Origin: an uncultured Gammaproteobacteria bacterium
GTDB taxonomy: Bacteria > Patescibacteriota > Patescibacteriia > Patescibacteriales > UBA12465
DNA length: 64,000 nt
Assembly: GCA_964587195.1 (NCBI GenBank)
Contig: CAZPKN010000001.1
Coordinates: 341 to 64,340, forward strand
Direction: 5' to 3'
Positions 3,914-58,045 of this stretch are shown here, piece by piece. Every line of letters begins with the position of its first letter. Within the stretch, counting starts at the first letter, position 1. Below the pieces are notes generated by a model. The model was not told where the DNA came from. It saw only the letters and a program-made list of their open reading frames with translations, and did no database searches. The position numbers and the translations under genes are program-made.

Positions 3914-4094
3914 CAGGTAAATTTCAGAACGGATTTATCCGTTCTGAAATTTAGCTTTTGGACAGACAGGAGGATGAGAACCCGAAGGGTTCACACTGCC
4001 GAGGATAGCGAGAGAAATGATAGCTTGCTAGCATTTCCGAGCGACGCAGGCAGAAAGGGCGACAAAGTCGCCCTGCAATCCTCTCGTCTCCGCC
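3914..4094 (+). repeat. tRNA-linked GC-rich module: hairpin, ~140-bp GC-rich segment and a 17-nt duplicate of the tRNA-Ser 3' end (4077-4093)
   Basis: aatcctctcgtctccgc at 4077-4093 is identical to tRNA 3' end 3898-3914. Perfect inverted repeat aaatttcagaacggatttatccgttctgaaattt precedes it. Segment contains gcaggcag, a fragment of the palindrome family seen at other tRNAs. Confidence 0.5.
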
Positions 4095-4167
4095 TTCGCC
4101 ACGCCATAGCCACCTAAAAGGTGGCGGCGGCGGGCAATGTTTATACTGTTTTAAAAACTTATTTTTA

Positions 4168-6110: not shown

Positions 6111-6242
6111 ATTTTATAAATAAAAAGTTGAGACAAAACATTATAAATTTATGAAGGCGACGGCGGAGCGTATTTGGAAAGTATAAAGGTTTTGGAAAAG
6201 AGGGTTGGGGGGGGATAAGAATAAATTTTAAATGAATGAGAT

Positions 6243-7643: not shown

Positions 7644-7662
7644 TTTTTAAAATAAAATTTTT

Positions 7663-8055: not shown

Positions 8056-8085
8056 TATTTATAAGGTAGGGGCAAATGCAATAGT

Positions 8086-9114: not shown

Positions 9115-9118
9115 TGCT

Positions 9119-10300: not shown

Positions 10301-10301
10301 T

Positions 10302-11390
10302 ATGGAAAAGTTTGATTCCATCGAAAATCTTGCTAAAGAAATAAAAAAGAAATTAAAGGTCACTAAGAAAAAGAAGATAGGAGCTCTTTATGCATTTAAT
10401 TCTACCGGAAAAACAAGATTATCAACGATATTAAATGAATCAAATAGAGAAGATGAGGAAAGCGACGGTAAAATAAAAGTTCTTTGTTATAACGCTTTCT
10501 TAGAAGACATGTTTATATGGGACAATGAGAATTATGTTCTTTCTTTTAATACAAATTCATGGATTGTAAAATTAGTAATTGATCAAGGTTTGGATGGAGA
10601 TATTATTGACAATTTCAAAGATATTATAAACTCAAATATCGAGCCCTCATTTGACTTTACTAATGGGGAAATTGCTTTTAATGTAGTTTCAGGAGATGAC
10701 AACAGTAAAAATAATATTAAAATTTCAAAGGGAGAGGAAAGTATTTTCATATGGTCATTTTTTTATACTATCCTAAAATCCGCAATTGAGACTCTAAACA
10801 TTGAGGAGTCAAATAGGCCTACGCCTGTTTTTAATGACCTAGGGCGCATAGTCATTGACGATCCAGTATCCTCTCTAGATGATACCAAGATAATAACAAT
10901 GACAATTAAGCTTGTGGAAACCATAGAATCATTTGAAGGTGACTCTCTATCGTTCTTTATTGCCACGCATCACGCTTTATTCTACAATATTTTAGTTAAT
11001 TCTTTTAAAAGAAATAGTGGTTGTAATTTTAAATCATACAACCTTATAAAAGATAACTATACCTTTCAACTTTTAAAACAAGGGGACACTCCTTTCTCTT
11101 ATCACCTATCAATAAAAAAAATTATTCAGGAAGCTATAATAGGTAATCATATTGAAAGATATCACTTCAATCTTTTTAGAAGCCTACTTGAGAAAACATC
11201 TACCTTCTTGGGATACGACGATTGGAGAAAATGCGTGCCGAGCGGAAGAAAGGCGGAATTTATAAGACTTCTTAATTTGTATAGCCATGGCAAATTATCA
11301 GATATTGAGAGCAGACAGATGTCTGGAGAGGATAAAATTATTTTTGAAGAAACATTCACTAATTTTGTCTCAGATTTTAAATGGGGTTAA
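10302..11390 (+). CDS. PrrC-like anticodon nuclease (ABC-ATPase N-domain + C-terminal ACNase-like domain)
   Basis: Walker A AFNSTGKTRL, signature-like ISKGEES, Walker B/D-loop IVIDDPVSSLDD. C-terminal R-x3-E (FRSLLEK) and downstream YSHGK, as in the PrrC catalytic triad. Sits between hsdS and hsdR, the canonical prrC position. Confidence 0.55.
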   Translation: MEKFDSIENLAKEIKKKLKVTKKKKIGALYAFNSTGKTRLSTILNESNREDEESDGKIKVLCYNAFLEDMFIWDNENYVLSFNTNSWIVKLVIDQGLDGDIIDNFKDIINSNIEPSFDFTNGEIAFNVVSGDDNSKNNIKISKGEESIFIWSFFYTILKSAIETLNIEESNRPTPVFNDLGRIVIDDPVSSLDDTKIITMTIKLVETIESFEGDSLSFFIATHHALFYNILVNSFKRNSGCNFKSYNLIKDNYTFQLLKQGDTPFSYHLSIKKIIQEAIIGNHIERYHFNLFRSLLEKTSTFLGYDDWRKCVPSGRKAEFIRLLNLYSHGKLSDIESRQMSGEDKIIFEETFTNFVSDFKWG

Positions 11391-11435
11391 TAATATACGA
11401 ATATTACCGAAACAAGCTTTTAACTTTTAAAGAAT

Positions 11436-12311
11436 ATGAATCATAAAATTTCCATCCGTTTTTTTAACGACCGAGAAGTTCGGGCTGTTTGGGATGAAAA
11501 AAATAATAAATGGTTATTTAGTGTATTAGATATTATTGCCGTTCTTACAGATCAAAATAATTACACTAAGACCCGTAACTATTGGAAATACCTCAAGGCC
11601 AAGCTTAAGAAAGAAAAAAGTCAGGTGGTTAGTTCTACTACCCAACTGAAAATTTTGGCAAATGATGGAAAACGGTATTTAACCGATATGCTGGACTATG
11701 ACGGTATTATCGCTTTGGGTAAAAATTTCCCCGGAACAAAGGCTAACCGATTTATTAATTGGTTTACTTTTAGCGACGAGGGTATAGACGGGAAAAGCAA
11801 AACCAAGGCTTATGCTTTGTTCGAAAGTTCGCTAATTAACAACATAGAAATAGGGACCACGAAAGGACTAAAGCAGATTCACGCCTACTTATTCGGCGGT
11901 CTTTATAATTTTGCCGGACAAATTAGAAAAAAGAATATTTCTAAAGGCGGTTTTCAGTTTGCTATGGCGCAGTATTTAGAAAACACACTTCAGCAGATTG
12001 AAAAAATGCCGGAGAAAACTTTTGAAGAAATTGTTGATAAATATGTAGAAATGAATATCGCTCATCCATTTATGGAAGGAAATGGCCGAACGACTCGCAT
12101 CTGGCTCGATTTAATTCTTAAAAAACGCTTAAAAAAATGCGTGGACTGGAGCAAGATAAGTAAGAAGGACTACATCGGTGCGATGATACGAAGCCCTAAA
12201 AACAGTCTAAAACTAAAAAATTTACTAAAAAAATCCTTAACTAACAAAATCAACAATCGTGAAATGTTTATGAAAGGAATAGATTATTCATATTATTACG
12301 AAGAGGATTAA
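11436..12311 (+). CDS. Bro-N domain - Fic/Doc family protein
   Basis: N-terminal Bro-N-like segment ([33 protein letters not shown]). Fic motif [12 protein letters not shown]. Confidence 0.7.
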
Positions 12312-12317
12312 AAAACT

Positions 12318-15300
12318 ATGCCAAACCAAGAACACAGCTCCGCTGAAAATTCGGCGGGAAGTTATAATCTAGTCGCTTCAAGTACTCAAAGCACCGTCGT
12401 GGCTGAGTATGTTTCTGATAAAAAAAGAGCGTTTAAGTATCAAAGCGAAGCCGAACTTGAAAAAGCTTTCATTAAGCAGTTAGAAGCCCAGGCTTATGAA
12501 TATTTAAAAATCGCCTCAGAAGATGATTTGCTTTTGAATTTACGAAAACAGCTCGAAAAGCTAAATGATTATAATTTTAGCGATTTAGAATGGAATCGAT
12601 TTTTTAAAGCCGAAATTGCTAACCAAAGCCAGGGTATTGAAGAAAAAACCGCTACCATTCAGGAAGATTATAAAAAAAATCTAATTCTTGATGACGGCTC
12701 AACTAGAAATATTTATCTCATTAAAAAAGACAGTATCCACGATAATAGTTTACAAGTTATTAACCAATATTCAAGCGAAGATGGCGAACGATTAAACCGC
12801 TATGATGTAACGATTTTAGTAAACGGCCTACCGCTTATCCATATCGAGCTAAAAAGACGAGGAGTAGCCATACAAGAAGCATTTAATCAGATAAATAGAT
12901 ACCAAAGAGAAAGCTTTTGGGCCGCTTCCGGTCTGTTTGAATATGTCCAGTTATTTATTATCTCAAACGGAACCCATACTAAATACTATAGCAATACTAC
13001 CAGATCACAGCACATCAAAGAGTCCGGCGAAGGAAAACAGAAAAAGGGCAGGCGGACAAGTAATAGCTTTGAGTTTACGAGCTGGTGGGCAGACGCCGCT
13101 AATCGGCCGATTACCGACTTAATTGATTTTACTAAAACATTTTTCGCCAAGCATGCCGTTTTAAATATTTTAACAAAATATTGCGTCTTTACCTCGGACA
13201 AATTACTGTTAGTAATGCGCCCCTACCAAATCGTCGCCACGGAAAGAATTTTAAATCGCATCGAAATAAGTACAAACTACAAAAAATTCGGAACCGTTGA
13301 GGCGGGCGGCTATGTTTGGCATACGACCGGGTCCGGAAAAACCCTAACTAGTTTTAAAACCGCTCAGCTTGCTAGCAAATTATCTTATGTTGATAAGGTT
13401 TTGTTTGTTGTTGATAGAAAAGATCTCGATTATCAAACCATGCAGGAATATGACAAGTTTGAAAAAGGGGCCGCAAGCAGTAATGTCAGTACCGCTATTT
13501 TAAAAAGACAACTAGAAGACAGTAGCTCAAGAATTATCGTCACAACTATTCAAAAACTCGATCGCTTTATCGCTAAAAACTCCGGACATACCGTTTTTGA
13601 CGGACATATTGTTATTATCTTTGACGAGTGCCACCGCTCACAATTCGGCGAAATGCACGCCGGCATAGTTAAGGCCTTTAAAAAATATCATCTATTCGGT
13701 TTTACCGGAACGCCGATTTTTGCCGCTAACGCTTCAACCGGCGGTCGTCCCGATTTTAAAACAACCGAGCAGGCTTTCGGTTCAAAACTTCATACCTATA
13801 CCATAGTTGACGCTATTTCCGATAAAAATGTTCTACCTTTTAAAGTCGATTATGTTTCAACTGTCCGCGAAGCCGAAGACATTGAAGATAAAAAAGTTAG
13901 CGATATTGATAGAGAGGCCGTTTTAGCCGCCCCGGAAAGACTCGAGAATATCGTTAAATATATTATTGAACATTTCGACCAAAAAACTAAACGAAATAGC
14001 TTTTATAAACTAAAAGAACGGAGGCTAGCCGGTTTTAATTCAATTTTTGCCGTTAGTTCAATTGAAGTTGCTAAAAAATATTATTTAGAATTTAAAAAAC
14101 AATTAGCCGAAGTTCCGAGCGATAAAAAATTAAAAATAGGAACTATTTTTAGTTTCGGGGTTAACGATGAAGACGGAGACGGAATGATGGATGAAAATTC
14201 CGAGGACACTAGCGGGCTTGATACTAGCTCTAGAGATTTTTTAGAAAGCGCTATTTCCGATTATAATGAAATGTTCGGAACATCTTACGATACCTCCTCC
14301 GATAAATTCCAAAATTACTATAAAGATGTCAGCGAAAAAGTAAAGAAAAGAGAGCTTGATGTCTTAATTGTCGTTAATATGTTTTTGACCGGGTTTGATG
14401 CGACTACTCTTAATACCCTTTGGGTTGATAAAAATCTGCGCTCGCACGGACTGCTCCAAGCTTATTCTAGGACTAACCGCATCTTAAACAGCATCAAAAC
14501 TTTCGGTAATATCGTTTGTTTTAGAAATTTAGAAAAAGCGACTAACGAAGCGATTGCCCTATTCGGCGATAAAGAAGCGGGCGGGATTGTTTTGCTTAGA
14601 TCTTATCAAGACTATTACCACGGCTATAAAGATGGCGATAAAGAATTTCGAGGTTATGTTAGCTTAGTCGACGAGCTAATGGCAAAATTCCCGGTCGGGA
14701 TAAGAATTGATAGCGAGCAAGCGCAAAAAGAATTCATTAATCTCTACGGCGGAATTTTAAGACTAAGAAACATTTTAACAACTTTCGACGAGTTTATCGG
14801 CGATGAAATATTTACCCAATACGATATTCAGGACTATCATAGCATGTACATTGATTTGTATAATGAACTTCGCAAAGTTAAAGAGAGCGAGAAAGAAAAT
14901 ATTAATGATGATATTGTTTTCGAAATGGAACTTATTAAACAAGTTGATATCAATATTGATTATATTTTAAGTCTTATTAAAATCTACCATGAAGATAATA
15001 CAAAAAATAAAGACAGCTTGATGGATATTAATAAAGCGATTGACGCGAGCGTTGAGCTTAGAAATAAAAAAGATTTAATTAACCAGTTTATCAGCTCGCT
15101 TGATATTAATTCAAAGATTGATGAAGATTGGCGGAAATTTGTTGCTGAAAAAAAGATTGAAGAACTGGAAAAAATTATCGCTAACGAAAATTTAGACAAA
15201 GAAGCGACTTATGCGCTTATTGATAACGCCTTTAAAGACGGCTATGTCCCGACTACTGGAACGACTATTACCAAAATTTTACCACCCGTATCAAGATTTT

Positions 15301-15392
15301 CTCCCGACGGAAAAATGACTATTAAGCGCGAAACTGTTCTTAGAAAACTAGCTAGCTTCTTCGACAGATTCTTTGATATTTCTGAGAGGTAG
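12318..15392 (+). CDS. hsdR: type I restriction-modification system restriction subunit (SF2 helicase/endonuclease)
   Basis: 1024 aa. HsdR N-terminal nuclease region, helicase motif I TGSGKT, DEAD-box-like IIFDECHRSQFG, motif VI-like QAYSRTNR. Confidence 0.9.
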   Translation: MPNQEHSSAENSAGSYNLVASSTQSTVVAEYVSDKKRAFKYQSEAELEKAFIKQLEAQAYEYLKIASEDDLLLNLRKQLEKLNDYNFSDLEWNRFFKAEIANQSQGIEEKTATIQEDYKKNLILDDGSTRNIYLIKKDSIHDNSLQVINQYSSEDGERLNRYDVTILVNGLPLIHIELKRRGVAIQEAFNQINRYQRESFWAASGLFEYVQLFIISNGTHTKYYSNTTRSQHIKESGEGKQKKGRRTSNSFEFTSWWADAANRPITDLIDFTKTFFAKHAVLNILTKYCVFTSDKLLLVMRPYQIVATERILNRIEISTNYKKFGTVEAGGYVWHTTGSGKTLTSFKTAQLASKLSYVDKVLFVVDRKDLDYQTMQEYDKFEKGAASSNVSTAILKRQLEDSSSRIIVTTIQKLDRFIAKNSGHTVFDGHIVIIFDECHRSQFGEMHAGIVKAFKKYHLFGFTGTPIFAANASTGGRPDFKTTEQAFGSKLHTYTIVDAISDKNVLPFKVDYVSTVREAEDIEDKKVSDIDREAVLAAPERLENIVKYIIEHFDQKTKRNSFYKLKERRLAGFNSIFAVSSIEVAKKYYLEFKKQLAEVPSDKKLKIGTIFSFGVNDEDGDGMMDENSEDTSGLDTSSRDFLESAISDYNEMFGTSYDTSSDKFQNYYKDVSEKVKKRELDVLIVVNMFLTGFDATTLNTLWVDKNLRSHGLLQAYSRTNRILNSIKTFGNIVCFRNLEKATNEAIALFGDKEAGGIVLLRSYQDYYHGYKDGDKEFRGYVSLVDELMAKFPVGIRIDSEQAQKEFINLYGGILRLRNILTTFDEFIGDEIFTQYDIQDYHSMYIDLYNELRKVKESEKENINDDIVFEMELIKQVDINIDYILSLIKIYHEDNTKNKDSLMDINKAIDASVELRNKKDLINQFISSLDINSKIDEDWRKFVAEKKIEELEKIIANENLDKEATYALIDNAFKDGYVPTTGTTITKILPPVSRFSPDGKMTIKRETVLRKLASFFDRFFDISER

Positions 15393-15467
15393 ATATATTT
15401 TGAGATAATTAATTTTAAATTATACCTTTGAAAATGACCATCAGTCAGCGTTAAATAAAAAATAATT

Positions 15468-15881
15468 ATGAATGGCTTTCAATATAAAAAAGATTATAAT
15501 TTTTTCTTAAATAAGTTAGCTAAAGGCGATAAAATTTTATTTGCTAAAAAATATCTGAAGTTATTTGATTTTAGAGATCCTAGTATAAAAAGAAAGGAAT
15601 TTAATAAAATTAGGAATAAATTATATAAAAAATTAGTTTTAAAATTTGGCGAACAATGTCAGTTAAAAATTCACCCTGATTGTTTCAAGGAGAAATCTTT
15701 TGATGTTGATCATTTCATTCCTCTCTCAACAAATAAGCTAAATAAGGAACTCAGAAATATAAAAGCAGCAAAAGGGAGAAAGGTTGCGAGTCAAAGTTTT
15801 GGGTCGAATGACATTGCTAATCTAAAAATAGCTTGTAAGAAATGTAATAGCTATAAAAAACATAAACTTTTGTTTAAATAA
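15468..15881 (+). CDS. HNH endonuclease
   Basis: CQLKIHPDC...DVDHFIPLS...IACKKCNSYKKH: two Cys pairs with a His-containing core, typical of HNH. Confidence 0.6.
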   Translation: MNGFQYKKDYNFFLNKLAKGDKILFAKKYLKLFDFRDPSIKRKEFNKIRNKLYKKLVLKFGEQCQLKIHPDCFKEKSFDVDHFIPLSTNKLNKELRNIKAAKGRKVASQSFGSNDIANLKIACKKCNSYKKHKLLFK

Positions 15882-16022
15882 TTAACGACAAAAAGAACTT
15901 AAACACCCCCGACCTAATCAATAAAATTATCACTGAAGTAGAAAGAACGTATAAAAGATATTAAAATTATAATAAATGCAAAAATAAGATAAAATCTACT
16001 TGAATACTATCAATCATCCCCC

Positions 16023-17519
16023 ATGCCACACATAAGCAAAACACAATACCTTGAATACCTCGCCTGCCCTAAGAACGCCTGGCTTAAACAACATAAGCCG
16101 GAGTTGGCTGGCTCTTTTGAGTTATCAGCTTTTGAAAAAAGTTTAGTCGCTAATGGAAATTTAGTTGAAGAGTGGGCCAGAAAACTTTTTCCAAGCGGCG
16201 TTTTAATAGAATCATCTGGCAAAACAGCCGCCTTAGAAACTATTAAATATTTAGAGGTTAAACAGTCGGCTATTTTTCAAGCTACTTTTATCACCGATAA
16301 ATTTCTAGCGCGAGCCGATGTTTTAGAATATGATAGTGAAACCGACTCTTGGAATCTCTATGAAATAAAAGGTACTAATTCCTTGAAAGAAAAAACCGAT
16401 GACAGAGATCATATTGATGATGCCGCTTTCCAATATATAACCCTTGGCGACTGCGGCCTAAAAATTGGAACTATAAATATTATCCACCTCAACAAAGACT
16501 ATATCCGGGGCGATGAAATAAACGTTCAAGAATTATTTGCGATTGATGATATCACTGATAAGATTCTCGAGCGAGAAGAGGCCACTAGAGAAAAAATGTC
16601 GGAAGCCGCTCAGGCTCTTTTTCAAAAAGACGAACGGGCAGTTAATTGCAATTGCATTTACAAAGGACGGAGCAATCATTGCTCAACTTTTAGCTATGCT
16701 CATCCTGAAGTCCCTGAATATGCTATTCATGATTTATACCGCATCGGCCTGAGCCCAAAAAAATTAGCCTCCCTGGTTGATGACAATATTTTTGATCTTG
16801 CCGACGTTCCCTCCGACTTTAAATTATCAGAAGCTCAGCAGAATCAAATTAACGTCTATAAAAGCCAAATGCCGATGATAGATTTAATATCTATTAAAGC
16901 CGAGCTTGAAGCGCTAAAATACCCGCTCTATTTCTTTGATTACGAAACATACCCACCGGCCATTCCCCTTTTTAAAGGCTTTAAACCCTATCAGCATATC
17001 CCCTTTCAATTTTCTCTACACGTCCTAAGCAGCCCGGACAGCGAGCCTGAGCATTACGGATATCTTCATATAGATAATACTAATCCGACCGCAGACATTA
17101 TTAATGCCCTACAAAAATATATCGGCCCCGAGGGAAGTATTATTGTCTGGTATAAGCCGTTTGAACAAACCAGAAATTTGGAATTAGCGCTTTTAAGTCC
17201 TGACAATAGTGAGTTTTTAGCGGATATCAACAACCGCATCTACGATTTAATGGATATCTTTTCCAAACAGCTATACGTCCACCCAAAATTTAAAGGGAGC
17301 ACTTCGATTAAAAAAGTATTACCAGTTTTAGTTCCATCTCTTAATTACCAAGAGTTAGAGATAAAAGAAGGGGGATCGGCCATGGAAGCTTGGTTTGAAA
17401 AAATATTTAATGCCAGTTCAGAAGCAGAGAAAGAAGAAACTGCTAAAAATCTTCTAAAATATTGCGAACTAGACACCTATGCCATGTACGCTATTTGGAA
17501 GGAATTGATGAAAATATAG
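16023..17519 (+). CDS. DUF2779-family protein (RecB/Cas4-like PD-(D/E)xK nuclease N-domain plus C-terminal domain)
   Basis: N-terminus ISKTQYLEYLACPKNAWL matches the DUF2779 'SKSxYxxxxxCPKxxWL' signature. D...EIK motif (ADVLEYDSETDSWNLYEIKG). Confidence 0.55.
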   Translation: MPHISKTQYLEYLACPKNAWLKQHKPELAGSFELSAFEKSLVANGNLVEEWARKLFPSGVLIESSGKTAALETIKYLEVKQSAIFQATFITDKFLARADVLEYDSETDSWNLYEIKGTNSLKEKTDDRDHIDDAAFQYITLGDCGLKIGTINIIHLNKDYIRGDEINVQELFAIDDITDKILEREEATREKMSEAAQALFQKDERAVNCNCIYKGRSNHCSTFSYAHPEVPEYAIHDLYRIGLSPKKLASLVDDNIFDLADVPSDFKLSEAQQNQINVYKSQMPMIDLISIKAELEALKYPLYFFDYETYPPAIPLFKGFKPYQHIPFQFSLHVLSSPDSEPEHYGYLHIDNTNPTADIINALQKYIGPEGSIIVWYKPFEQTRNLELALLSPDNSEFLADINNRIYDLMDIFSKQLYVHPKFKGSTSIKKVLPVLVPSLNYQELEIKEGGSAMEAWFEKIFNASSEAEKEETAKNLLKYCELDTYAMYAIWKELMKI

Positions 17520-22534: not shown

Positions 22535-22756
22535 AAAAATGTTTATTACATTGTTATAGTTTAATAGTATATGAAAAATAGCCCATACTCAAGGCTATTT
22601 AAAACTTAACAATTTTTCTTTCCTCCGCTCGCCCGCTTCGTTGGAGCTTAGCGAGGCGAGCCGGCTGCTAATTTGAATCATCTATTCATATAAACCCGAC
22701 CACAGGGGTCGGGCTTATTTTTGGCGGAGGGGAATCAACGGTATTAGAAATAAAAA

Positions 22757-23887: not shown

Positions 23888-24006
23888 AGCTTTAACTATA
23901 TTATTTTATAATTAAAGTTTAGCACTTAACTTTAATTAAGTCAAAACATAATAAAAGTTGAAAAAAGTAAAACAAAAAATCATCTAACATTAGATAATTT
24001 TTTTGA

Positions 24007-24310
24007 TGGCGGAATGGACGGGACTCACTACCCGGTCCTCCCGGTCCGCCCAGGGCGGACATCGCTCAGACTTTCTCGTCCCGACGCGAGCCAAACTATT
24101 GGCTCACTTCCATTCCGTATTCAAAAATAAACCCGACCACAAGGGTCGGGCTTATTTTTGGCGGAATGGACGGGACTCACTACCCGGTCCTCCCGGTCCG
24201 CCCAGGGCGGACATCGCTCAGACTTTCTCGTCCCGACGCGAGCCAAACTATTGGCTCACTTCCATTCCGTATTCAAAAATAAACCCGACCACAAGGGTCG
24301 GGCTTATTTT
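24007..24310 (-). repeat. tandem direct repeat, 2 x 152 bp; each unit has 20 nt of the tRNA-Asp 3' end, ~95 bp GC-rich sequence and a copy of the tRNA terminator hairpin
   Basis: Units 24007-24158 and 24159-24310 are essentially identical. tggcggaatggacgggactc equals the tRNA-Asp 3' end. Hairpin aaacccgaccacaagggtcgggcttattttt is repeated, and a diverged third copy is at ~22690-22745. Confidence 0.85.
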
Positions 24311-24387
24311 TGGCGGAATGGACGGGACTCGAACCCGCGACCTCCTGCGTGACAGGCAGGCGTTCTAACCAACTGAACTACCACTCC
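24311..24387 (-). tRNA. tRNA-Asp (anticodon GTC), CCA encoded
   Basis: Reverse complement GGAGTGGTAGTTCAGTTGGTTAGAACGCCTGCCTGTCACGCAGGAGGTCGCGGGTTCGAGTCCCGTCCATTCCGCCA. Near-identical architecture to E. coli tRNA-Asp. Confidence 0.85.
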
Positions 24388-28101: not shown

Positions 28102-28205
28102 AAATATTAGAAGATACTAGGATAATCATAGGGTTAATTTAGGAAAAAATCAATCATAATTTAGTTTTTTTTCGTAAACAAAAACACAGAATTTTATCCT
28201 GTGTT

Positions 28206-28473
28206 TTTGTTATGGGTGGGCGCACAAGCCTGCCTGCCGGCAGGCAGGGATTTCCGCCCTCGCTTTTCGCCGGAAATGCGAAAAGCTCACTTGTCCAGAC
28301 CGGCCGCTAAACGCTCGCCAACTCGCGTTTATCGTCGCTCCCCTTTTCGCTCGAGCCCTGCCTGCCGGCAGGCAGGTTCCGCTCTCGCTCAAGACTCGCT
28401 CGCCGCTAGTTCGACTACTATGCCGTTCCGGCATTAAACAAAAAAGAAGCCATTGGCTTCTTTTTTGTTTATG
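28206..28473 (-). repeat. tRNA-Val-linked GC-rich module with two copies of the 20-bp palindrome CCTGCCTGCCGGCAGGCAGG (28229-28248, 28357-28376) and a 12-nt copy of the tRNA-Val 3' end (28217-28228)
   Basis: tgggcgcacaag at 28217 equals the tRNA-Val 3' end at 28474. Region is about 60% GC in an AT-rich genome. Homologous to the modules at tRNA-Gly and tRNA-Ala. ORF-track ORFs here are artefacts. Confidence 0.6.
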
Positions 28474-28547
28474 TGGGCGCACAAGGATTCGAACCCTGGA
28501 CCCCTTCGGTGTAAACGAAGTGCTCTAACCAGCTGAGCTATGCGCCC
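28474..28547 (-). tRNA. tRNA-Val (anticodon TAC)
   Basis: Reverse complement GGGCGCATAGCTCAGCTGGTTAGAGCACTTCGTTTACACCGAAGGGGTCCAGGGTTCGAATCCTTGTGCGCCCA. Anticodon loop TTTACAC. Confidence 0.8.
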
Positions 28548-28560
28548 TTATTCGGGACAG

Positions 28561-28644
28561 TGGGCGAAAGAGGATTTGAACCTCCACGGCCTCGCGGCCA
28601 CAAGCCCCTCAAGCTTGCGTGTCTACCAATTTCACCATCCGCCC
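28561..28644 (-). tRNA. tRNA-Leu (anticodon GAG), long variable arm
   Basis: Reverse complement GGGCGGATGGTGAAATTGGTAGACACGCAAGCTTGAGGGGCTTGTGGCCGCGAGGCCGTGGAGGTTCAAATCCTCTTTCGCCCA. Confidence 0.75.
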
Positions 28645-33099: not shown

Positions 33100-34632
33100 A
33101 TGGCGATTAAAATTTTAGCGGCCGCTATTATCGGCCTAGAAGCGTCAATTATCGAAGTCGAAGCTGATTCGGGCGGCGGCGATTTCGGACAGATAAGCAT
33201 CGTTGGTTTACCGGACGCCTCCGTCTCGGAAGCGAAAGAGCGCGTTAAAAGCGCTCTAAGAAATTCCGGCTATGAATTCCCGCGGCGGAAAATAACAGTT
33301 AATCTCGCTCCCGCTAATATTAGAAAGCATGGCCCCGGTTATGATTTAGCAATCGCCATCAGCATTCTGGCTTTGAAAAACAATTTTAGCTGGGATTTTG
33401 AAAAATCTCTTTTAGCGGGCGAATTATCTTTAAGCGGCGAACTGAGACCGCTTAACGGTGTTTTAGCCATCGCTATCAAAATGAAAAAAGCCGGCTTAAA
33501 AGATTTATTTATTCCCCGCGGTAATATCCGAGAAGCGTCTTTAGTCGGCGGGTTAAATATTTTTCCGGTTGATAATTTAACCGAACTGGCTCGCCACTTT
33601 TCTGGCAAGGAACTCTTAAACCCTGTCTGTGAAAAATTAACTTTTCCGCCGTCTGTAAAAAATAATGATTTAAATGAATCTGATTTTGCTTTTATCAAGG
33701 GTCAAGAAAAAGCCAAGCGAGCTTTAGAAATCGCCATTGCTGGCGGCCACAATATTTTAATGGCCGGACCGCCTGGATCGGGTAAAACTTTATTAGCCCA
33801 AGCGGCCGCCGGCATACTGCCTGATTTATCCGAAGAAGAGACGTTAGAAATAACTAATATCTATAGTATCGCCGGTGAATTAAAGCCTGAAGCTCGTTTA
33901 ATAACTGAACGCCCCTTTCGCATGCCGCATCATAGCGCTTCAAATACTGCTTTAGTCGGCGGCGGCTCGTGGCCTAGACCAGGGGAAATATCCTTAGCCC
34001 ATCATGGTGTTTTATTTCTTGATGAATTTCCGGAATTTAGCCGCTTAGCTTTAGAAAACTTACGCCAACCGCTTGAAAACGGCCATATTACCATTAATCG
34101 CTCGGCCGGTTCCTTAAAATTTCCTTGCCGGTTTATTTTAATCGCCGCCATGAATCCCTGCCCTTGCGGTTATTATGGTGATAAAAAAGTCGCCTGCACC
34201 TGCCGAAGTAAACAAATCGCTGATTATCGCCGGAAAATTTCCGGCCCGATTATGGACAGAATCGATATCCATATTTCCGTTCCCCGCTTAGATTTTGATG
34301 CCCTGAGTAGTAATATCATCGGTGAAAATTCACAAATCGTAAAAGCCCGCTTAAGCGCCGCCAGACAGCGCCAATTAGAGCGTTTAAAAACGCCTGGGAA
34401 AATATTAAATAGCCGTTTATCAAGCCGTCTAATTGAAAAATATTGTTTTTTAGACGAAGAGTCAAAAAACATCCTAAAAGTAGCCTCTAGCCGCTTAAAT
34501 TTATCATCGCGCTCCTATTTTAAAGTTTTAAAAGTCGCCAGAACTATCGCTGATTTATCCGGCCAAGATCATGTTTCCGTCGAGCATATCGCCGAAGCTC
34601 TCCAATACCGACCACAATTACTAGACAGTTGA
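33100..34632 (+). CDS. comM: YifB/ComM-family Mg-chelatase-like AAA+ ATPase
   Basis: N-terminal Lon-like domain, Walker A MAGPPGSGKT, sensor motifs, C-terminal ChlI domain. Confidence 0.85.
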   Translation: MAIKILAAAIIGLEASIIEVEADSGGGDFGQISIVGLPDASVSEAKERVKSALRNSGYEFPRRKITVNLAPANIRKHGPGYDLAIAISILALKNNFSWDFEKSLLAGELSLSGELRPLNGVLAIAIKMKKAGLKDLFIPRGNIREASLVGGLNIFPVDNLTELARHFSGKELLNPVCEKLTFPPSVKNNDLNESDFAFIKGQEKAKRALEIAIAGGHNILMAGPPGSGKTLLAQAAAGILPDLSEEETLEITNIYSIAGELKPEARLITERPFRMPHHSASNTALVGGGSWPRPGEISLAHHGVLFLDEFPEFSRLALENLRQPLENGHITINRSAGSLKFPCRFILIAAMNPCPCGYYGDKKVACTCRSKQIADYRRKISGPIMDRIDIHISVPRLDFDALSSNIIGENSQIVKARLSAARQRQLERLKTPGKILNSRLSSRLIEKYCFLDEESKNILKVASSRLNLSSRSYFKVLKVARTIADLSGQDHVSVEHIAEALQYRPQLLDS

Positions 34633-36072: not shown

Positions 36073-36753
36073 ATGAGAAAAAAAATCTTTGCTTTTAGCC
36101 TTTGTTTAATTATCTTTTTAGCAGTTCTAATCATCCCGACCATATCAAGCGCCCAAAGCTCAATCATTGCTTCTTCTAGCGAAAAATATGAATACGGGCA
36201 ATACGGCCTTAATGACATGTTAAGTATAGCGACTTGGGCGGCCAAATGGATACTGGGAATAGTCGGCTCGCTAACTCTTTTAATGTTTGTCTATGGCGGC
36301 TTTATCTTATTAACTTCGGCTGGTAGTAATGAAAAGGTCGGAGAAGCAAAAAAAATAATTACCGCGGCGGTAATCGGTTTAATTATTGTTTTCAGTAGCG
36401 CCATGATAATTAGGTTTGTTTCTACTTCGCTCGGATTAAGTTGGTCCGGAGAAAAATTAGAAACGGCCTCTAGCCAAAATACAGGAGGAGTAATAAAAGC
36501 AACTGACTCAACTTGCGCAAATTATAAATTATCTAGCGGAGAAACAGCGGGATCATCAGGATTTAGTTGCGTTGAATCAAGCAGTGCTGGCTATTGTCTT
36601 AACGGGCTCTGCCCAAGTTATGGCAGCAGCATAAAATGCTGCGCGCCAAAATGTGAGACCAAGCATCCTGGATGGACATGTACTACCGATACCGACGGAA
36701 AAACTTGTGTCGATTATCTATGTAAAGGGGCGGGGAAATGTTGCAAAAAATAA
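36073..36753 (+). CDS. TrbC/VirB2-like pilin-family protein with Cys-rich C-terminal extension
   Basis: Signal peptide, then a conserved two-helix core (GSLTLLMFVYGGFILLTSAGSNEKVGEAKKIITAAVIGLIIVF) shared with the 40.5-43.1 kb paralogs. C-terminal ~90 aa contain about 16 Cys. Confidence 0.5.
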   Translation: MRKKIFAFSLCLIIFLAVLIIPTISSAQSSIIASSSEKYEYGQYGLNDMLSIATWAAKWILGIVGSLTLLMFVYGGFILLTSAGSNEKVGEAKKIITAAVIGLIIVFSSAMIIRFVSTSLGLSWSGEKLETASSQNTGGVIKATDSTCANYKLSSGETAGSSGFSCVESSSAGYCLNGLCPSYGSSIKCCAPKCETKHPGWTCTTDTDGKTCVDYLCKGAGKCCKK

Positions 36754-40514: not shown

Positions 40515-40910
40515 ATGAAAAAAATATCAAAACACTTACTATCTTTAGCCATAGTTTCTTTATTGGTTTTACCAGTATTCGCCTTAAATGTTCACGCTCA
40601 AGATGACAACCCAATTACCAATGGCATAACAGCTGTCGAAAGTAAATTCAATGGCGTTTTAGGATCTACTAATACCGACCCCCGAGAAGTAATCGCTAGT
40701 ATTATCAATATTGCCCTAGGATTTCTTGGGATAATCGCGGTAGGAATCGTTTTAATCGGCGGTTTTAAATGGATGACGGCGGCTGGAAACGAAGATAAAG
40801 TCGAAGAAGCTAAGAAAATTCTTGGCGCTGGCGTTATCGGTTTAGTTATCGTTTTATCCGCTTGGGCTCTAGCATCATACGTCATTAACACTATCCAAAA
40901 CGAAATATAG
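40515..40910 (+). CDS. TrbC/VirB2-like pilin-family small secreted membrane protein (paralog 1 of 6)
   Basis: Signal peptide plus conserved core IINIALGFLGIIAVGIVLIGGFKWMTAAGNEDKVEEAKKILGAGVIGLVIVLSAWALASYV. Confidence 0.55.
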   Translation: MKKISKHLLSLAIVSLLVLPVFALNVHAQDDNPITNGITAVESKFNGVLGSTNTDPREVIASIINIALGFLGIIAVGIVLIGGFKWMTAAGNEDKVEEAKKILGAGVIGLVIVLSAWALASYVINTIQNEI

Positions 40911-41013
40911 CTCTACAAAATAAGTAGTCCTCATTATCTAATGGGGATTGCTATTTTGGGCTCTAAACAACTTTACTTATTTTGAGCCCAAAGTAGTGAT
41001 TAATCTTATTTTT

Positions 41014-41433
41014 ATGTTAAAAAAAATTGTTTTAACGGTTTTTTTAAGCTTCCTATTAGGCGGTCTTTTACTTGGTTTTTGTACAAATCCGGCTAGTGCT
41101 CAAGAAGAAAATTATGGCCTTAATGCTACCGCCGGCCAAATAGACGCTTTCAAAGAACAAGTAAATAATTCAACTCTTCCTGAAAATTTTATCCAAACTC
41201 GCGCCGGAGAAGTTATCGGCTTCGTACTCTCGCTGGTCGGTATTCTTTTTCTAGGCTTAATGATTTACGCTGGATTGCTCTGGATGACTGCTCAAGGCAA
41301 TGAACAAAAGGTAGAAAAAGCTAAAGACTTATTAATTAATGCGGTAGTCGGTTTAATTATTGTCTTCGCCGCTTACGCTATAACTGCCTTTGTCGGTGAG
41401 TTTGTTAGTAAAGAGTTATTAGCTTCTAAATAG
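41014..41433 (+). CDS. TrbC/VirB2-like pilin-family protein (paralog 2)
   Basis: Same core (LWMTAQGNEQKVEKAKDLLINAVVGLIIVFAAYAIT). Start set at MLKKIVL, so the ORF-track upstream extension is rejected. Confidence 0.55.
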   Translation: MLKKIVLTVFLSFLLGGLLLGFCTNPASAQEENYGLNATAGQIDAFKEQVNNSTLPENFIQTRAGEVIGFVLSLVGILFLGLMIYAGLLWMTAQGNEQKVEKAKDLLINAVVGLIIVFAAYAITAFVGEFVSKELLASK

Positions 41434-41441
41434 CAAAAACA

Positions 41442-41876
41442 TTGACCTTCATGTCTAGACTTTCTATTCATTATTCAAAACTAACTTATTTAAAAAAGGC
41501 TTTTTTAGTTGGTTTTTGCTTACTCGGATTATCTTTATTGAGCTTAACGGCGTCGGCCTATGAATTTAAAAGTGACAGCGGACTCTCAACTACTGGGAAA
41601 GCAGCGGGATATAACGAAGGCGCAACGCCTGATCCGGCCGTAATAGCCGGACAAGTTGTTCAGGCAGTTTTAAGTGTTTTAGGGATAGTTTTTCTCGCTT
41701 TTATGATTTACGCCGGGATAACTTGGATGACTGCTCAGGGCGATGACCAAAAATCCATGAAAGCCAAAAGAGTCATTGAAGGCGCTATAACCGGCCTTAT
41801 TATTGTTATCGCCGCTTACGCTATTTCCTACTTTATTATTGGTTATTTTGCCGCTACCGGGACAATAAAAAACTAG
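41442..41876 (+). CDS. TrbC/VirB2-like pilin-family protein (paralog 3)
   Basis: Core ITWMTAQGDDQKSMKAKRVIEGAITGLIIVIAAYAIS. Confidence 0.55.
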   Translation: MTFMSRLSIHYSKLTYLKKAFLVGFCLLGLSLLSLTASAYEFKSDSGLSTTGKAAGYNEGATPDPAVIAGQVVQAVLSVLGIVFLAFMIYAGITWMTAQGDDQKSMKAKRVIEGAITGLIIVIAAYAISYFIIGYFAATGTIKN

Positions 41877-41883
41877 ATAATAT

Positions 41884-42267
41884 ATGAAGTCTTTATCAAA
41901 AAAAATAATTACCGCTTTATTTTTCATATTTGTTATGTCCGCTTCTTCGGCTCTAGCTCAAGGAGGCATAGAGTCAGCTTTTGATAACGCAAAAACAGTC
42001 GCCAGCAGCTCTGGTTATGTCGAGCAATCGGTTAATACCTTAGCTGGGGATATTATTCGCCTGGCCTTAACAATTCTCGGGACTTTATTTGTAGTTTTTA
42101 TAATTTATGCCGGATTTCTCTGGTTAACCGCTGCCGGCAACGAACAAAGAGTTGATAAGGCTAAAAAAATAATTTTTGAATCAACTATCGGCCTAATTAT
42201 CGTTATCGCCGCCTACGCTATAACTTACTTTATTGTTTCCGCCTTCAAAGGGCAGATTAACCTTTAA
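41884..42267 (+). CDS. TrbC/VirB2-like pilin-family protein (paralog 4)
   Basis: Core LWLTAAGNEQRVDKAKKIIFESTIGLIIVIAAYAIT. Confidence 0.55.
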   Translation: MKSLSKKIITALFFIFVMSASSALAQGGIESAFDNAKTVASSSGYVEQSVNTLAGDIIRLALTILGTLFVVFIIYAGFLWLTAAGNEQRVDKAKKIIFESTIGLIIVIAAYAITYFIVSAFKGQINL

Positions 42268-42272
42268 ATATT

Positions 42273-42665
42273 ATGAAAAAACATTTTAAAACTGTATCAT
42301 CCCTGCTAATAATGATAGTTATATTAGTTTTACCTTATTTTGTATTTGGACAGAGCGCTGGGACGGAAGACGGTATGCTAGGCAGATTAAATACCGTCGC
42401 TAAAACTGGCGGATATGTAACTGGTGGTGAGAGCGAGCTAGCTTATACAATTGGCTTAATCATTCAGGTTGTTCTCGGACTTTTAGGCGCCATCTTCATT
42501 ATTCTTATGGTTTATGCCGGCTATACCTGGATGACAGCCGCTGGAAACGAACCAAAAATAGACAAAGCTAAAGACATGATACAAACGGCGATTATCGGCT
42601 TAGTTATAGTTTTATCATCTTGGGCAATTTGGACATTTATTTTCACTAATTTCATTAGTAAATAA
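42273..42665 (+). CDS. TrbC/VirB2-like pilin-family protein (paralog 5)
   Basis: Core TWMTAAGNEPKIDKAKDMIQTAIIGLVIVLSSWAIW. Confidence 0.55.
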   Translation: MKKHFKTVSSLLIMIVILVLPYFVFGQSAGTEDGMLGRLNTVAKTGGYVTGGESELAYTIGLIIQVVLGLLGAIFIILMVYAGYTWMTAAGNEPKIDKAKDMIQTAIIGLVIVLSSWAIWTFIFTNFISK

Positions 42666-42691
42666 AAGCCCATTTTTTAATACAGATATAT

Positions 42692-43123
42692 ATGAAAAAA
42701 ATTATTAGCTTCTTAATTCTTCTCGGACTAGCGATTGTGATTATTCCTAGTGCTTCGGCTCAACTTATAGATGAAAAAACGCTAGGATACATGAATGATA
42801 TTTCTGGGAGCGTCCAGGAAACCGCCGGTTTCGGAGATGCTTCGGTCGGCAGTATTATTGCCGCTATTATAAGAGCTATTCTCGGACTACTAGCCGCTAT
42901 TTTTATGGTTCTAATGATTCTATCGGGCTTTAGATGGATGACGGCGGCTGGTAATGAAAGTCAGGTAGAAAAAGCTCAGGAAACGATTAAAGCGGCTTTA
43001 ATCGGATTAATAGTTGTTCTAGCTGCCTACGCCATAACCTACTACGTGTTTACCTATCTTCCCTTCAGCGCTGGACAGGCCGGCAGCGAAACGGGCAGCG
43101 GGCTAATAACATCTGGCTCATAG
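42692..43123 (+). CDS. TrbC/VirB2-like pilin-family protein (paralog 6)
   Basis: Core RWMTAAGNESQVEKAQETIKAALIGLIVVLAAYAIT. Confidence 0.55.
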   Translation: MKKIISFLILLGLAIVIIPSASAQLIDEKTLGYMNDISGSVQETAGFGDASVGSIIAAIIRAILGLLAAIFMVLMILSGFRWMTAAGNESQVEKAQETIKAALIGLIVVLAAYAITYYVFTYLPFSAGQAGSETGSGLITSGS

Positions 43124-43712: not shown

Positions 43713-43790
43713 GATTATTCCCCGCCTTTACCCCGATTATTACTTAATTTATTAAGTTTTCATCGATCTCCGGCGAGGCTCCTTTTTAAA

Positions 43791-43908
43791 GTTAAACATA
43801 TAATAATTACCAGTTTGGCTAATATTAGTAAAACTAGTAATTATTACATGCCAACTTCTTTGTCAAAGATCAATTTGTTAATAAATAATTATATCACAAA
43901 TAAACTAA
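43791..43908 (-). promoter_or_regulatory. conserved ~115-bp upstream element (copy 1), about 85% identical to 58046-58160, with -35/-10 and an inverted-repeat operator-like site
   Basis: The two copies were aligned directly. In gene orientation it contains TTGACA, an ATAATT-like -10, and inverted repeat CAGTTTggctaatattagtAAACTAG. Confidence 0.55.
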
Positions 43909-44047
43909 AAAGTCAAATCTTTTCCCCAGCCTCGGATTGACATTTAATTCTCCCTATGCTATAGTATTCAGTCGAGAAAATCCCTGCTAGATATTATCGA
44001 TATGATAAGGTAGGGATTTTTTATTTGACGCCAACAGCCAAAAATTT

Positions 44048-49502: not shown

Positions 49503-49653
49503 TCCAAGAGTTGACTTTAGGGACACTTTTTTATAGAATAATTATCAGTTACTAAAGATAGTTGAAGGGCTAATTATAATATTAATAGGCGGGGTAATCC
49601 CCGCTGAAGTGTGAAATTAATAGGCAGGCTTGCCTCGCTGAAGCGAAGCGAAA

Positions 49654-49725: not shown

Positions 49726-50184
49726 CAATTAAAAACAACATCCGACAGGGTGTTGTTTTTAATTGTATGGAATGAATGGGAATCGGACTGGTTGAAAGTG
49801 AGCGAGGACTGAGGTCGGAAGACCGAGGGACGAAGCGAACGTCGGACGGCTTGCCTTGAATGGCAAGCCGAACGCCAACCCCGGACAAGTGAACGAGGCG
49901 CTTTCCGGCGCCGAGTGAGCGCGGAACCTGCCTGCCGGCAGGCAGGTTCCCCTTACCCGCTCAATTAAAAACAACATCCGACAGGGTGTTGTTTTTAATT
50001 GTATGGAATGAATGGGAATCGGACTGGTTGAAAGTGAGCGAGGACTGAGGTCGGAAGACCGAGGGACGAAGCGAACGTCGGACGGCTTGCCTTGAATGGC
50101 AAGCCGAACGCCAACCCCGGACAAGTGAACGAGGCGCTTTCCGGCGCCGAGTGAGCGCGGAACCTGCCTGCCGGTAGGCAGCTA
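49711..50184 (+). repeat. tandem direct repeat 2 x 237 bp downstream of tRNA-Gly; each unit has the tRNA 3' 15 nt, a terminator hairpin, and a GC-rich segment ending in CCTGCCTGCCGGCAGGCAGG
   Basis: Units 49711-49947 and 49948-50184 are near-identical. Palindrome at 49927-49946 and a variant at 50163-50181. The first unit begins inside the genuine tRNA. ORF-track ORFs here are artefacts. Confidence 0.85.
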
Positions 50185-56870: not shown

Positions 56871-56942
56871 ACTTTTTACTAAATAATACTTATACTATTA
56901 CAATTATAGTATATTTTTGAGTTAAACGATAGCCGCCACTAA

Positions 56943-56960: not shown

Positions 56961-57083
56961 TTGAACATTAGATTGCCGAATTTGTGATGATGCAAACAAA
57001 TAAAAAAGGACATTATATCTCGCCTTCAACTTTATCTGCCTTTCGCGTCTCACTTCCAACTAGTTCAAGTCCTTTATTCCGAA

Positions 57084-57334
57084 TCAAACAAAACAAAAGA
57101 GCCTCACGCAGGTGAGGCTCTTTTGTTTGTGGACCATAAGGGACTTGGTCACCGTCGCTAAGTCTCGCTCGCCCGCTCTAGGTGGGCTTCGCTCACTAAG
57201 CGCCCCGACCCGGCCTCGGCGGCGCACAAGCCCGCCTACCGGCAGGCAGGTGCGCATCGCCTCCGGCATTCAAGTCCCTTTTTGCGAATCAGACATAACA
57301 AAAGAAGCTCACGCAGGTGAGCTTCTTTTGTTTG
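57084..57334 (-). repeat. tRNA-Ala-linked GC-rich module: terminator copy, palindrome variant CCCGCCTACCGGCAGGCAGG (57235-57254) and 17-nt copy of the tRNA-Ala 3' end (57130-57146)
   Basis: tggaccataagggactt is duplicated. Hairpin aaaagagcctcacgcaggtgaggctctttt is duplicated as aaaagaagctcacgcaggtgagcttctttt. Contains gcgcacaag, a Val-3'-like sequence, adjacent to the palindrome, as in the tRNA-Val module. Confidence 0.6.
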
Positions 57335-57408: not shown

Positions 57409-57418
57409 ATATCTTAAT

Positions 57419-58010: not shown

Positions 58011-58045
58011 TTTTCTTTACCGCTCCTAACGGCTTTTTTAATTTA

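Follow-up and report, generated by a model that had tools for sequence, protein, structure and literature searches.

The 3' flank of the tRNA-Val gene in this 64,000-nucleotide stretch of Patescibacteria DNA (hereafter the window) raises the question of what the GC-rich module behind the gene is, and whether the 20-bp palindromes that it carries belong to it or arrived separately. Patescibacteria have tiny genomes that are thought to be poor in mobile DNA. Our preferred answer, in which we place slightly better than even confidence, is that the locus holds two nested layers of selfish non-coding DNA: a cassette that lives at tRNA tails and a palindrome that was inserted into it.

The tRNA-Val module is one of several. 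The window has a GC content of approximately 37% and contains eight tRNA genes, five of which (Ser, Asp, Val, Gly, and Ala) are followed directly at the 3' end by a GC-rich stretch (55–62% GC). All five are recognised as tRNAs by ARAGORN and Rfam, and each of these filled sites consists of an intact tRNA and a direct repeat of its own 3' end. Read in the tRNA sense, the modules share an order in which the tRNA is followed by an A-tract/hairpin/T-tract, an inverted and partly diverged copy of the T-arm or 3' end, 100–230 nucleotides of GC-rich hairpins, a direct copy of the last 13–20 nucleotides of the tRNA, and a second hairpin. The modules are 150–260 bp in size and have a GC content of approximately 62%, compared to 37% for the genome, a richness that helix stability would account for only indirectly. 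A simple terminator scan did not pick up the A-tract/hairpin/T-tract structures, which we describe as terminator-shaped from their form and position. The direct repeats vary in length (13–20 nucleotides) and always end at the tRNA 3' end, and thus lack the fixed length of a MITE- or REP-type target-site duplication. In nearly all copies the repeat starts at T-loop position ~57–59. A hairpin is located 10–13 nucleotides from the right end of the module, and the inverted target copy is at the left end. In the Asp, Ser, and Ala modules and in the units of a further locus (L076), this left inverted T-arm or 3'-end copy pairs with the tRNA-end copy on the right, whereas in the Val/Gly family it matches the T-loop only.

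The intact tRNA-Val(TAC) gene (28473..28547, identified by ARAGORN and Rfam) is preceded 12 nucleotides upstream by tRNA-Leu(GAG) (28560..28644, ARAGORN; Rfam tRNA score 50.7 bits), and these genes and the features that follow, apart from the palindromes, are on the minus strand. The last 13 nucleotides of tRNA-Val (28473–28485) form the proximal 3'-end repeat, or core. Next comes a terminator-shaped A-tract/GC-hairpin/T-tract (28436..28472), which by alignment is orthologous to the hairpin after the tRNA-Val 3' copy in a relative (L158) and which arrived with the insert. It is followed by a short hairpin, GCCGGAACGGC, with an inverted T-loop (TCGAAC; 28409..28435), and the same layout of hairpin plus GGATTCGAAC is found ahead of the body in L163, L165, L166, L170, and L171. 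The structured body (body V; 28251..28408) has approximately 139 positions in seven helices and is split by the first palindrome copy, a clean 20-bp insertion (28357..28376) at the 3' edge of the GGAA apical loop of a body helix. The second copy (28229..28248) separates the T-loop-like body end, GGCGGAAATC, from the displaced tRNA-Val 3'-end copy (28216..28228), which reads CTTGTGCGCCCAC in the tRNA sense. Beyond it is the native terminator-shaped hairpin of tRNA-Val (28175..28215), orthologous to the hairpin found directly behind tRNA-Val in another relative (L160). The first-pass annotation had noticed both palindromes downstream of tRNA-Val and the fusion of the distal one to the tRNA 3' end, and we find the same: both copies are exact matches to CCTGCCTGCCGGCAGGCAGG (hereafter PAL), and the distal copy abuts GTGGGCGCACAAG, the 13-nucleotide repeat of the tRNA terminus. 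Its division of the module into two sub-units has to be abandoned. Nothing is common to the two parts beyond the palindrome, and the module consists of one conserved body interrupted by a PAL insertion.

The modules at the other tRNAs differ in content. The tRNA-Ser module (3915..4140, plus strand) contains a tRNA-Ser 3'-end copy at 4077–4093, and tRNA-Asp carries two 152-bp tandem units (24000..24310, minus strand) with three 3'-end copies (24311–24330, 24159–24178, and 24007–24026); neither module contains PAL. At tRNA-Gly there are two identical 236-bp units (49727..50182, plus strand) with bodies of the structured family at 49789–49927 and 50025–50163. These units include the third exact PAL of the window (49927–49946), a tRNA-Gly 3' copy (49947–49963), and a variant PAL with two mismatches (50163–50182). 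The tandem units at Asp and Gly, two in each case, are 98–100% identical. The tRNA-Ala modules (57060..57333, minus strand) consist of a GC-rich first unit and an AT-decayed copy as the second, with a tRNA-Ala 3'-end copy at 57128–57147. In addition, an orphan fragment (22620..22735, minus strand) combines a GC-rich stretch with a tRNA-like 3' end, GATTCCCCTCCGCCA, and a hairpin that matches the one in the Asp module at 97% identity; no tRNA gene lies beside it.

Protein-level matches assign the organism to Patescibacteria, and its neighbours carry the annotations Falkowbacteria or Parcubacteria. Orthologous loci in relatives whose flanking proteins are 72–97% identical reveal that the modules are polymorphic insertions. 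The Val site is empty in L160, where tRNA-Val is followed directly by the hairpin orthologous to the distal hairpin of the window, and the empty tRNA-Val site is predicted to consist of the tRNA end joined to CCATAACAAAAACACAGG; two further empty-site junctions are predicted to read GAGCGGAAGCTCGAGCG and GGCGGAAATCCTTGTGCG. The Asp site is empty in three relatives (L158, L160, and L162), the Ser site in one (L158), and the Ala site in two (L183, 74%, and L185, 86%). At tRNA-Gly, a 97% relative (L176/L177) has a single unit instead of the two in the window, a 72% relative (L181) has a body different from that of the Gly unit in the window, and an 80% relative looks empty, on a contig that ends 70 nucleotides after the tRNA (L179). 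In L158, the tRNA-Val that bears the module in the window is occupied by a 1.45-kb element of the classical kind, which contains an integrase fragment and is flanked by 28-bp repeats. The pattern of empty and filled sites indicates that tRNA 3' ends are hot spots and that the modules are lineage-specific gains. The modules are insertions that supply a new tRNA 3' end and hairpin and displace the old 3' end.

Homologues of the body were found by a BLAST search of the Val module against fetched loci, which yielded L163, and by a 23-mer metagenome scan, which yielded seven more contigs. The body of approximately 140 nucleotides is present at 76–90% identity in other Patescibacteria contigs and is associated with several tRNAs, being joined to tRNA-Val in the window and in L166/L167, to a tRNA-Trp 3' end in L163, L170, and L171, to tRNA-Gly in L181, and to a fourth tRNA end in L165/L168/L169. 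The body end is always the T-loop-like GCGGAAT. A history of movement between tRNA loci had been proposed in the first-pass annotation from a Val-like string in the Ala module, and movement is borne out, although the exchange of tRNA partner by the body is much stronger proof of it than that string.

The fold of the body is well supported by covariation. RNAalifold predicts seven helices from seven sequences, with 98.3% of cells paired, and compensatory changes are present in 22 of the 36 pairs, compared to 3–5 in slid controls; none of 500 shuffles reach the observed values. With more distant members added, in an alignment fitted to our covariance model of the body (R1), compensatory changes are present in 29 of 36 pairs. 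R1 scores the Val body of the window at 145.9 bits (E 7e-33) and matches the Val and Gly bodies of the window and nine others, always in the tRNA sense; beyond the seven sequences that it was built from, its matches include the two Gly units of the window (66 bits), the unit of L176, and two further units in L163. There is no R1 match to the Ser, Asp, and Ala modules, and these, which have only layout and short motifs in common with Val/Gly, are putative members of one family with them. A few G-U pairs in the body would be A-C on the other strand, which favours the tRNA-sense strand. The fold may act as an RNA or as single-stranded DNA, and the data fit either. The strong covariation implies that the body is selected for its fold, which counts against our reading in that 'junk' cassettes would not need it, and the body may be an RNA with an unrecognised function. 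No promoter-like site for a body transcript was found. At the gathering score, Rfam 15 returned only the tRNAs, and relaxing the threshold to E ≤ 10 added no meaningful match in the Val and Gly regions. When viral contigs were scanned for the body, the outcome was at most a match in a phage gene that is due to chance.

Conservation of the body does not extend to the hairpin adjoining the tRNA, which differs between copies of the same body. The proximal Val hairpin of the window is the L158-type allele. Moreover, the L181 hairpin behind tRNA-Gly is identical to the distal Val hairpin of the window at 35 of 39 positions, including CCA, which indicates that the flanks of tRNA loci travel with cassettes. 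This hairpin has moved from a Val-type locus to a Gly locus.

PAL, a perfect 20-bp palindrome, behaves as a layer of its own. Shuffles of the window give an expectation of zero PAL matches. Six homologous bodies cover the internal insertion site, and without PAL this site reads GAGCGGAA joined directly to GCTCGAGCG. At the junction between body and core, PAL is absent in all five covering homologues and the tRNA end follows GGCGGAAT, the end of the body, without interruption; L163, L165, L170, and L181 have no PAL at the body/tRNA-end junction. The two indels in the Val body are clean and without duplication. Neither disturbs the predicted structure, since the first copy is at the edge of the GGAA apical loop and the second is outside the fold. 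The absence of PAL at both positions in the homologous bodies implies a separate clean 20-bp insertion rather than an attachment site, and we interpret PAL as such an insertion, which has occurred twice in the Val cassette. The Gly cassettes have it at the corresponding body/tRNA-end junction, and the Ala cassette contains a single copy.

Outside the window, exact copies of PAL are present in 35 stretches in IMG/VR and in at least 120 stretches in one-genome-per-species GTDB contigs, compared to an expectation of about 0.5 for any 20-mer if the four bases were equally frequent. Overall, there are at least 150 unrelated contexts in many phyla, including Patescibacteria, Bacteroidota (cultured isolates among them), Omnitrophota, Planctomycetota, Bdellovibrionota, Proteobacteria, and Nitrospirota, as well as viral contigs. 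Most copies are lone 20-mers in AT-rich DNA. Abutting direct repeats of at least 5 nucleotides (5–8) were found at only 7 of 165 sites, and there is no consistent target duplication. Motifs of the tRNA D-arm are enriched four-fold beside PAL, while T-loop motifs are not enriched. Tandem repeats hold 12% of PAL sites versus 1.7% of controls, and 17 of 20 have a period of seven (heptamer repeats). A preference for CGGA(A) as the abutting flank is real but weak (10/333 versus 37/6190). A general preference for hairpin loops was considered and dropped, since 31% of sites fall in a predicted loop once PAL is removed, compared to 30% of controls, which is not significant. Deletion of PAL restores a complete tRNA in only two cases, and the palindrome is mostly in tRNA fragments or elsewhere. 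We also rejected a sequencing or adapter artefact: PAL occurs in isolate genomes, in assemblies from many groups, and in contigs named like long-read assemblies, and its in-frame and structure-compatible placement counts against such an origin. Response regulators are another recurrent protein cluster near PAL, which we consider irrelevant. We found neither the palindrome nor the body of the cassette described in Rfam or in the literature that we searched.

At five independent loci in other genomes, PAL starts 39–57 nucleotides upstream of a small GIY-YIG ORF (Pfam PF01541) and lies inside a partial copy of the adjoining gene, which is tRNA-Lys, tRNA-Gly, tRNA-Leu, another tRNA, or hsdS. At such a locus, PAL separates part A from part B of the partial tRNA, and the GIY-YIG ORF comes next, ahead of the complete tRNA; in L097, this layout is found in frame inside hsdS. 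L114, L173, and L174 have a variant palindrome in the corresponding position. In L076 and L111, one and the same tRNA has a decayed GIY-YIG cassette on its 5' side and a GC-rich module on its 3' side. These loci were picked by the palindrome and frequency was counted from the PAL side; L111 and L175 have GIY-YIG cassettes without PAL, and approximately 90% of PAL sites have no GIY-YIG ORF within 1.2 kb. In a profile search, no ORF of 40 amino acids or longer in the window matched GIY-YIG at E ≤ 10, and no GIY-YIG gene lies beside the copies of body V.

The tRNA-Ala module contains a Val-like 10-mer, GGCGCACAAG, next to a palindrome variant, CCCGCCTACCGGCAGGCAGG, that has two mismatches (PAL*, at 57231–57250; the 10-mer and variant together span 57221..57250). 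The first-pass annotation had reported this string at 57232–57254. The recurrence is genuine but that location is ~5–10 nucleotides off, since GCGCACAAG plus palindrome is found in the window at 28220–28248 and 57222–57250, and none of 100 shuffles match. Similarity between the Ala and Val modules covers 30 nucleotides at 93% identity, with the flank identical at 10 of 10 positions, and does not continue outside these 30 nucleotides. In the tRNA sense, the Ala variant is followed by CTTGTGCGCC, the same ten bases that follow PAL at the Val junction. A 5-nucleotide direct repeat, GCGCA (57224–57228 and 57252–57256, plus strand), flanks CAAG-PAL*-T, so part of the match may be local and only the four nucleotides of CAAG are strictly unexplained. 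The Ala copy has a C13>T variant that is also present in the copy of Gly unit 2 and missing from the exact Val copies. Alignments of the Ala module with the modules of L076 and L163 are too divergent to place PAL* and the Val-like 10-mer.

Most likely, the Ala string is a PAL that was copied from a palindrome/Val-end junction together with approximately 9 nucleotides of flank, in an event that may have been resolved at the 5-nucleotide microhomology GCGCA. That the match is mostly coincidence, with PAL inserted alongside a 5-nucleotide GCGCA target duplication and CAAG matching by chance, strikes us as rather unlikely. It would explain the GCGCA repeat on both sides, would resemble the few PAL sites elsewhere that have abutting direct repeats, and fits the variant shared with Gly unit 2. 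However, the two Val-body indels have no duplication, an identical 10-nucleotide flank right next to the palindrome has a prior probability of about 1e-6 in any one comparison, and CAAG next to PAL is not a general preference (2 of ~330 flanks). Descent of the whole Ala module from a cassette once located at tRNA-Val, as the first-pass annotation had offered, draws on the same 30-nucleotide match and on the demonstrable ability of cassettes to change their tRNA partner. We find it hard to sustain and give it little weight: only those 30 nucleotides are common, the covariance model has no match in the Ala module, and the Val-like 10-mer occupies a mid-module position and not one at a hairpin junction.

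If the two-layer reading is correct, the first layer would be a non-autonomous mobile cassette living at the 3' ends of tRNA genes. In the tRNA sense, such a cassette would begin with a replacement tRNA 3' end (from T-loop position ~57–59 to the end) and a terminator-shaped hairpin, and would continue with the short hairpin and inverted T-loop and with the multi-helix body of approximately 140 nucleotides ending in GCGGAAT; the displaced native 3' end and native terminator would follow. Entry is predicted to occur by recombination between the T-loop/3'-end sequence of the cassette and the tRNA gene, rebuilding the tRNA and leaving a direct repeat of 13–20 nucleotides. One possible route is a Campbell-type event from a small circle, for which the predicted circle junction joins GGCGGAAATC to CTTGTGCGCCCAC-ATAAAC, that is, the body end to the core and ATAAACAAAAAAG. 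Another is a double crossover after DNA uptake, in which the tRNA and the 3'-end copy would act as two arms. ComM, of a transformation helicase family, is encoded at 33100–34632 according to a Pfam scan. The distal tRNA-end copy is missing in L176 and in the last Gly and Ala units, so a pure Campbell model needs a later deletion. Tandem units might arise by recombination between repeats. We infer that the enzyme acts in trans and is encoded outside of the window: the window contains no homologue of the L158 integrase, Pfam searches of the 20 larger ORFs, which include all those beside modules, found no integrase, recombinase, or transposase family, and there is no credible ORF inside the modules. 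The second layer would be the PAL insertions in the apical loop of the body, at the body/tRNA-end junctions of Val and Gly, and in the Ala cassette, by a copying mechanism that, like the recombination route and the enzyme, we deduce from the arrangement of the products. A retroelement reading, in which the inverted tRNA-end copy serves as a primer-binding site, was rejected; the ORFs scanned with Pfam include no reverse transcriptase, and it offers no route to the observed layout.

Other explanations treat the palindrome, the fold, or the nuclease as the key to the locus. The proposal that the palindrome and a Val-like core form the element's own attachment sequence has the appeal that a palindrome abuts the displaced tRNA end at both Val (28229–28248 next to 28216–28228) and Gly (49927–49946 next to 49947–49963). 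It is nevertheless very improbable, as cassettes at Val, Trp, Gly, and the fourth tRNA join the body end to the tRNA end without a palindrome, the Asp and Ser modules have none, and a Val-like flank beyond 5 nucleotides is found at 0 of 167 palindrome sites in other genomes. A derivation of the cassettes from IS200/IS605-type single-strand transposons or another RNA-guided element, with body, 13–20 nucleotides of tRNA sequence, and hairpin forming a guide RNA that homes into tRNA genes directly behind the conserved T-loop TTCGA, would account for a covarying, scaffold-like body in the tRNA sense followed directly by target-identical sequence, for the near-constant start of the repeat in the T-loop, and for the positions of the right-end hairpin and the inverted target copy at the left end. 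We regard it as unlikely. No TnpA, TnpB, IscB, or IS110 gene was found in the window or beside approximately 12 copies, clustering of ORFs around palindrome loci identified GIY-YIG as the only recurrent nuclease, there is no Rfam match at E ≤ 10, and a tRNA-end copy at the left end is not normal for such transposons.

A further explanation traces both layers, as by-products, to the cutting of tRNA genes by small free-standing GIY-YIG homing nucleases; repair from foreign or ectopic templates would then produce the partial tRNA duplications and disperse the palindrome. The five loci with PAL in a partial gene copy just upstream of a GIY-YIG ORF, the variant palindromes at the same place in three more loci, and the combination of a decayed GIY-YIG cassette and a GC-rich module at one tRNA in L076 and L111 are what this would lead one to expect. 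On the other hand, GIY-YIG genes are absent from the window and from the surroundings of every copy of body V, the great majority of palindrome sites have no such ORF nearby, and the associated loci were chosen by the palindrome and two GIY-YIG cassettes lack it; we consider this origin rather unlikely. Also unlikely is a bolder combination in which the body would be a guide-type RNA (a scaffold, 13–20 nucleotides identical to a tRNA 3' end, and a terminator) that homes to the conserved tRNA T-loop via an RNA-guided nuclease or recombinase encoded elsewhere. In it, no mobile DNA unit smaller than PAL would be on record, and small GIY-YIG nucleases, whose genes PAL precedes, would copy it from phylum to phylum. 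We continue to favour a tRNA-tail cassette with palindromes inserted into it.

Several known systems resemble one or the other layer. Integrative elements that target tRNA genes include tyrosine-integrase islands and prophages and their integrase-less derivatives, such as cis-mobilisable elements. Like the cassettes, they enter at the T-loop/3' end and restore an intact tRNA with a 3' end that the element brings along, the displaced 3' fragment remaining as a direct repeat, and they form empty and filled sites and tandem arrays. In contrast, the cassettes are only 150–260 bp, gene-free, and GC-rich in an AT-rich genome; they have a folded domain with compensatory changes and a body found with at least four tRNA ends, and their tRNA-adjacent hairpin is not conserved together with that body. 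Short palindromic repeats such as REP/BIME, Correia elements, Rickettsia palindromic elements, and the GC clusters of yeast mitochondria are lineage-specific families. They share with PAL a GC-rich hairpin unit in non-coding DNA (some inside RNA genes), presence/absence polymorphism, and a lack of coding capacity. However, PAL is only 20 bp, perfect, and identical across phyla, has no constant target duplication, and is linked to GIY-YIG genes and heptamer repeats.

The omega RNAs of IS200/IS605 elements have a folded scaffold at the right end of the element followed by flank-derived, target-identical sequence, and in the cassette a folded scaffold likewise directly precedes target-identical sequence. 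The cassette differs in having no TnpB, IscB, or TnpA nearby and no Rfam match, and its transcription would be putative. Endonuclease genes of fungal mitochondria may carry a duplicate of the end of the host gene. Free-standing GIY-YIG genes resemble the PAL loci in being small ORFs in or near tRNA genes where a partial duplicate keeps an intact copy. In phage T4, segB is a free-standing GIY-YIG homing endonuclease gene in a tRNA gene cluster (PMC2330249). However, the modules in the window have no ORF, and the GIY-YIG cassettes elsewhere, as read from sequence, encode the catalytic domain only (~80–95 amino acids) and have a constant palindrome in the broken gene copy. What appears to be new here is a gene-free cassette, a folded body that changes its tRNA partner, and a perfect 20-mer that is identical across phyla.

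These repeats have practical consequences. They break assemblies, as Logan contigs of the same strain end inside them, and they can mislead the annotation of tRNAs and pseudogenes. The body is a new, well-supported structured family of approximately 140 nucleotides, and its change of partner makes the retargeting of tRNA-directed elements directly amenable to study. A 20-bp sequence that is identical across phyla and is gained cleanly implies a very widespread, unnamed copying activity, which possibly corresponds to the ubiquitous small GIY-YIG proteins. For the Patescibacteria lineage itself, recent insertions at five of the eight tRNA genes in 64 kb make tRNA tails a major site of genome flux.

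The perfect 20-bp palindrome that is inserted twice in the tRNA-Val module of the window is frequently found within tandem heptamer repeat arrays (L003, L024, L087, L095, L105, L117, L119, L138 and others, where L-numbers denote loci fetched from other genomes, viral contigs or metagenome assemblies). The heptamer unit around the palindrome varies between genomes, while the palindrome itself is constant. Among the matches listed, 20 of 167 palindrome sites occupy a tandem-repeat setting, versus 1.7% in controls, and the period is seven in 17 of these 20.

The palindrome also occurs in a recurrent cassette, in which it splits a partial 5' gene copy that is followed by an ORF of 80-95 aa encoding a GIY-YIG protein and then by the complete gene (L074 2100-2480; L143 3660-4061; L155 5791-6300; L034 440-900; L097 3700-4160). 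The partially copied gene is either a tRNA or hsdS, and the hosts include different phyla as well as viral contigs. In L130 (4700-5200), another small ORF of this GIY-YIG family is inserted into a putative 23S rRNA gene.

At the equivalent of the window's tRNA-Val in a relative (L158 7940-9420), we found a 1.45-kb element that carries a truncated phage-type integrase and is bounded by 28-bp repeats of the tRNA-Val 3' end. The same arrangement is present in L167, where it is followed by the conserved cassette body, the folded part of the Val and Gly modules.

Repeats also lie near other tRNAs. Immediately 5' of tRNA-Gly in the window are two tandem units of ~35 nt with small GC hairpins (49576-49653; AATAGGCGGGG..CCCCGCTGAAGTG and AATAGGCAGGC..GCCTCGCTGAAGCG), which are kept in the 97% relative at this locus. 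Three tandem units of ~91 nt precede tRNA-Gly(GCC) in L155 (2480-2860), each containing a 5' tRNA copy with its anticodon arm swapped for a GC hairpin that differs per unit; these are an ORF-less, 5'-side counterpart of the window's 3' modules. A near-identical hairpin, TAATTGTTCCTTRAGGAACAATT, brackets the window's tRNA-Ala and its modules (56938-56960 and 57417-57440), and also flanks tRNA-Ala in two relatives that have no modules (L183 and L185). Logan short-read contigs of the window's own strain (L001, L002 and L182) end inside modules, and module repeats therefore fragment assemblies.

An island of 20-33% GC (4533-17519) adjoins the tRNA-Ser module. Its scanned ORFs match type I restriction S (9119-10300) and R (12318-15392) subunits, AAA/AbiEii-like ATPases, a Bro-N/Fic protein and DUF2779; hsdS carries four copies of the 12-nt repeat CGGAGCTAGAAG (9606-9653). 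Elsewhere, six or seven small paralogous genes spaced by ~400 bp (36073-36753 and 40515-43123; repeat families D1, D2 and D4) are T4SS-pilin-like (PF18895) by synteny with relatives. An AT-rich intergenic block is present in two copies (43790-43928 and 58045-58189; 89% over 80 nt), one immediately 3' of tRNA-Arg(CCT).

Variants of the palindrome were also observed. A tRNA-Leu-like gene 3' of a GIY-YIG ORF (L174 225-380) holds three: one lies in the D-loop region, and a tandem pair immediately precedes the T-loop. The C13>T variant (CCTGCCTGCCGGTAGGC...) is present in the window (50163-50182 and 57231-57250) and in L123, L036, L018 and L176. Because this variant recurs in several unrelated genomes, its distribution suggests a second palindrome 'allele' rather than random decay.
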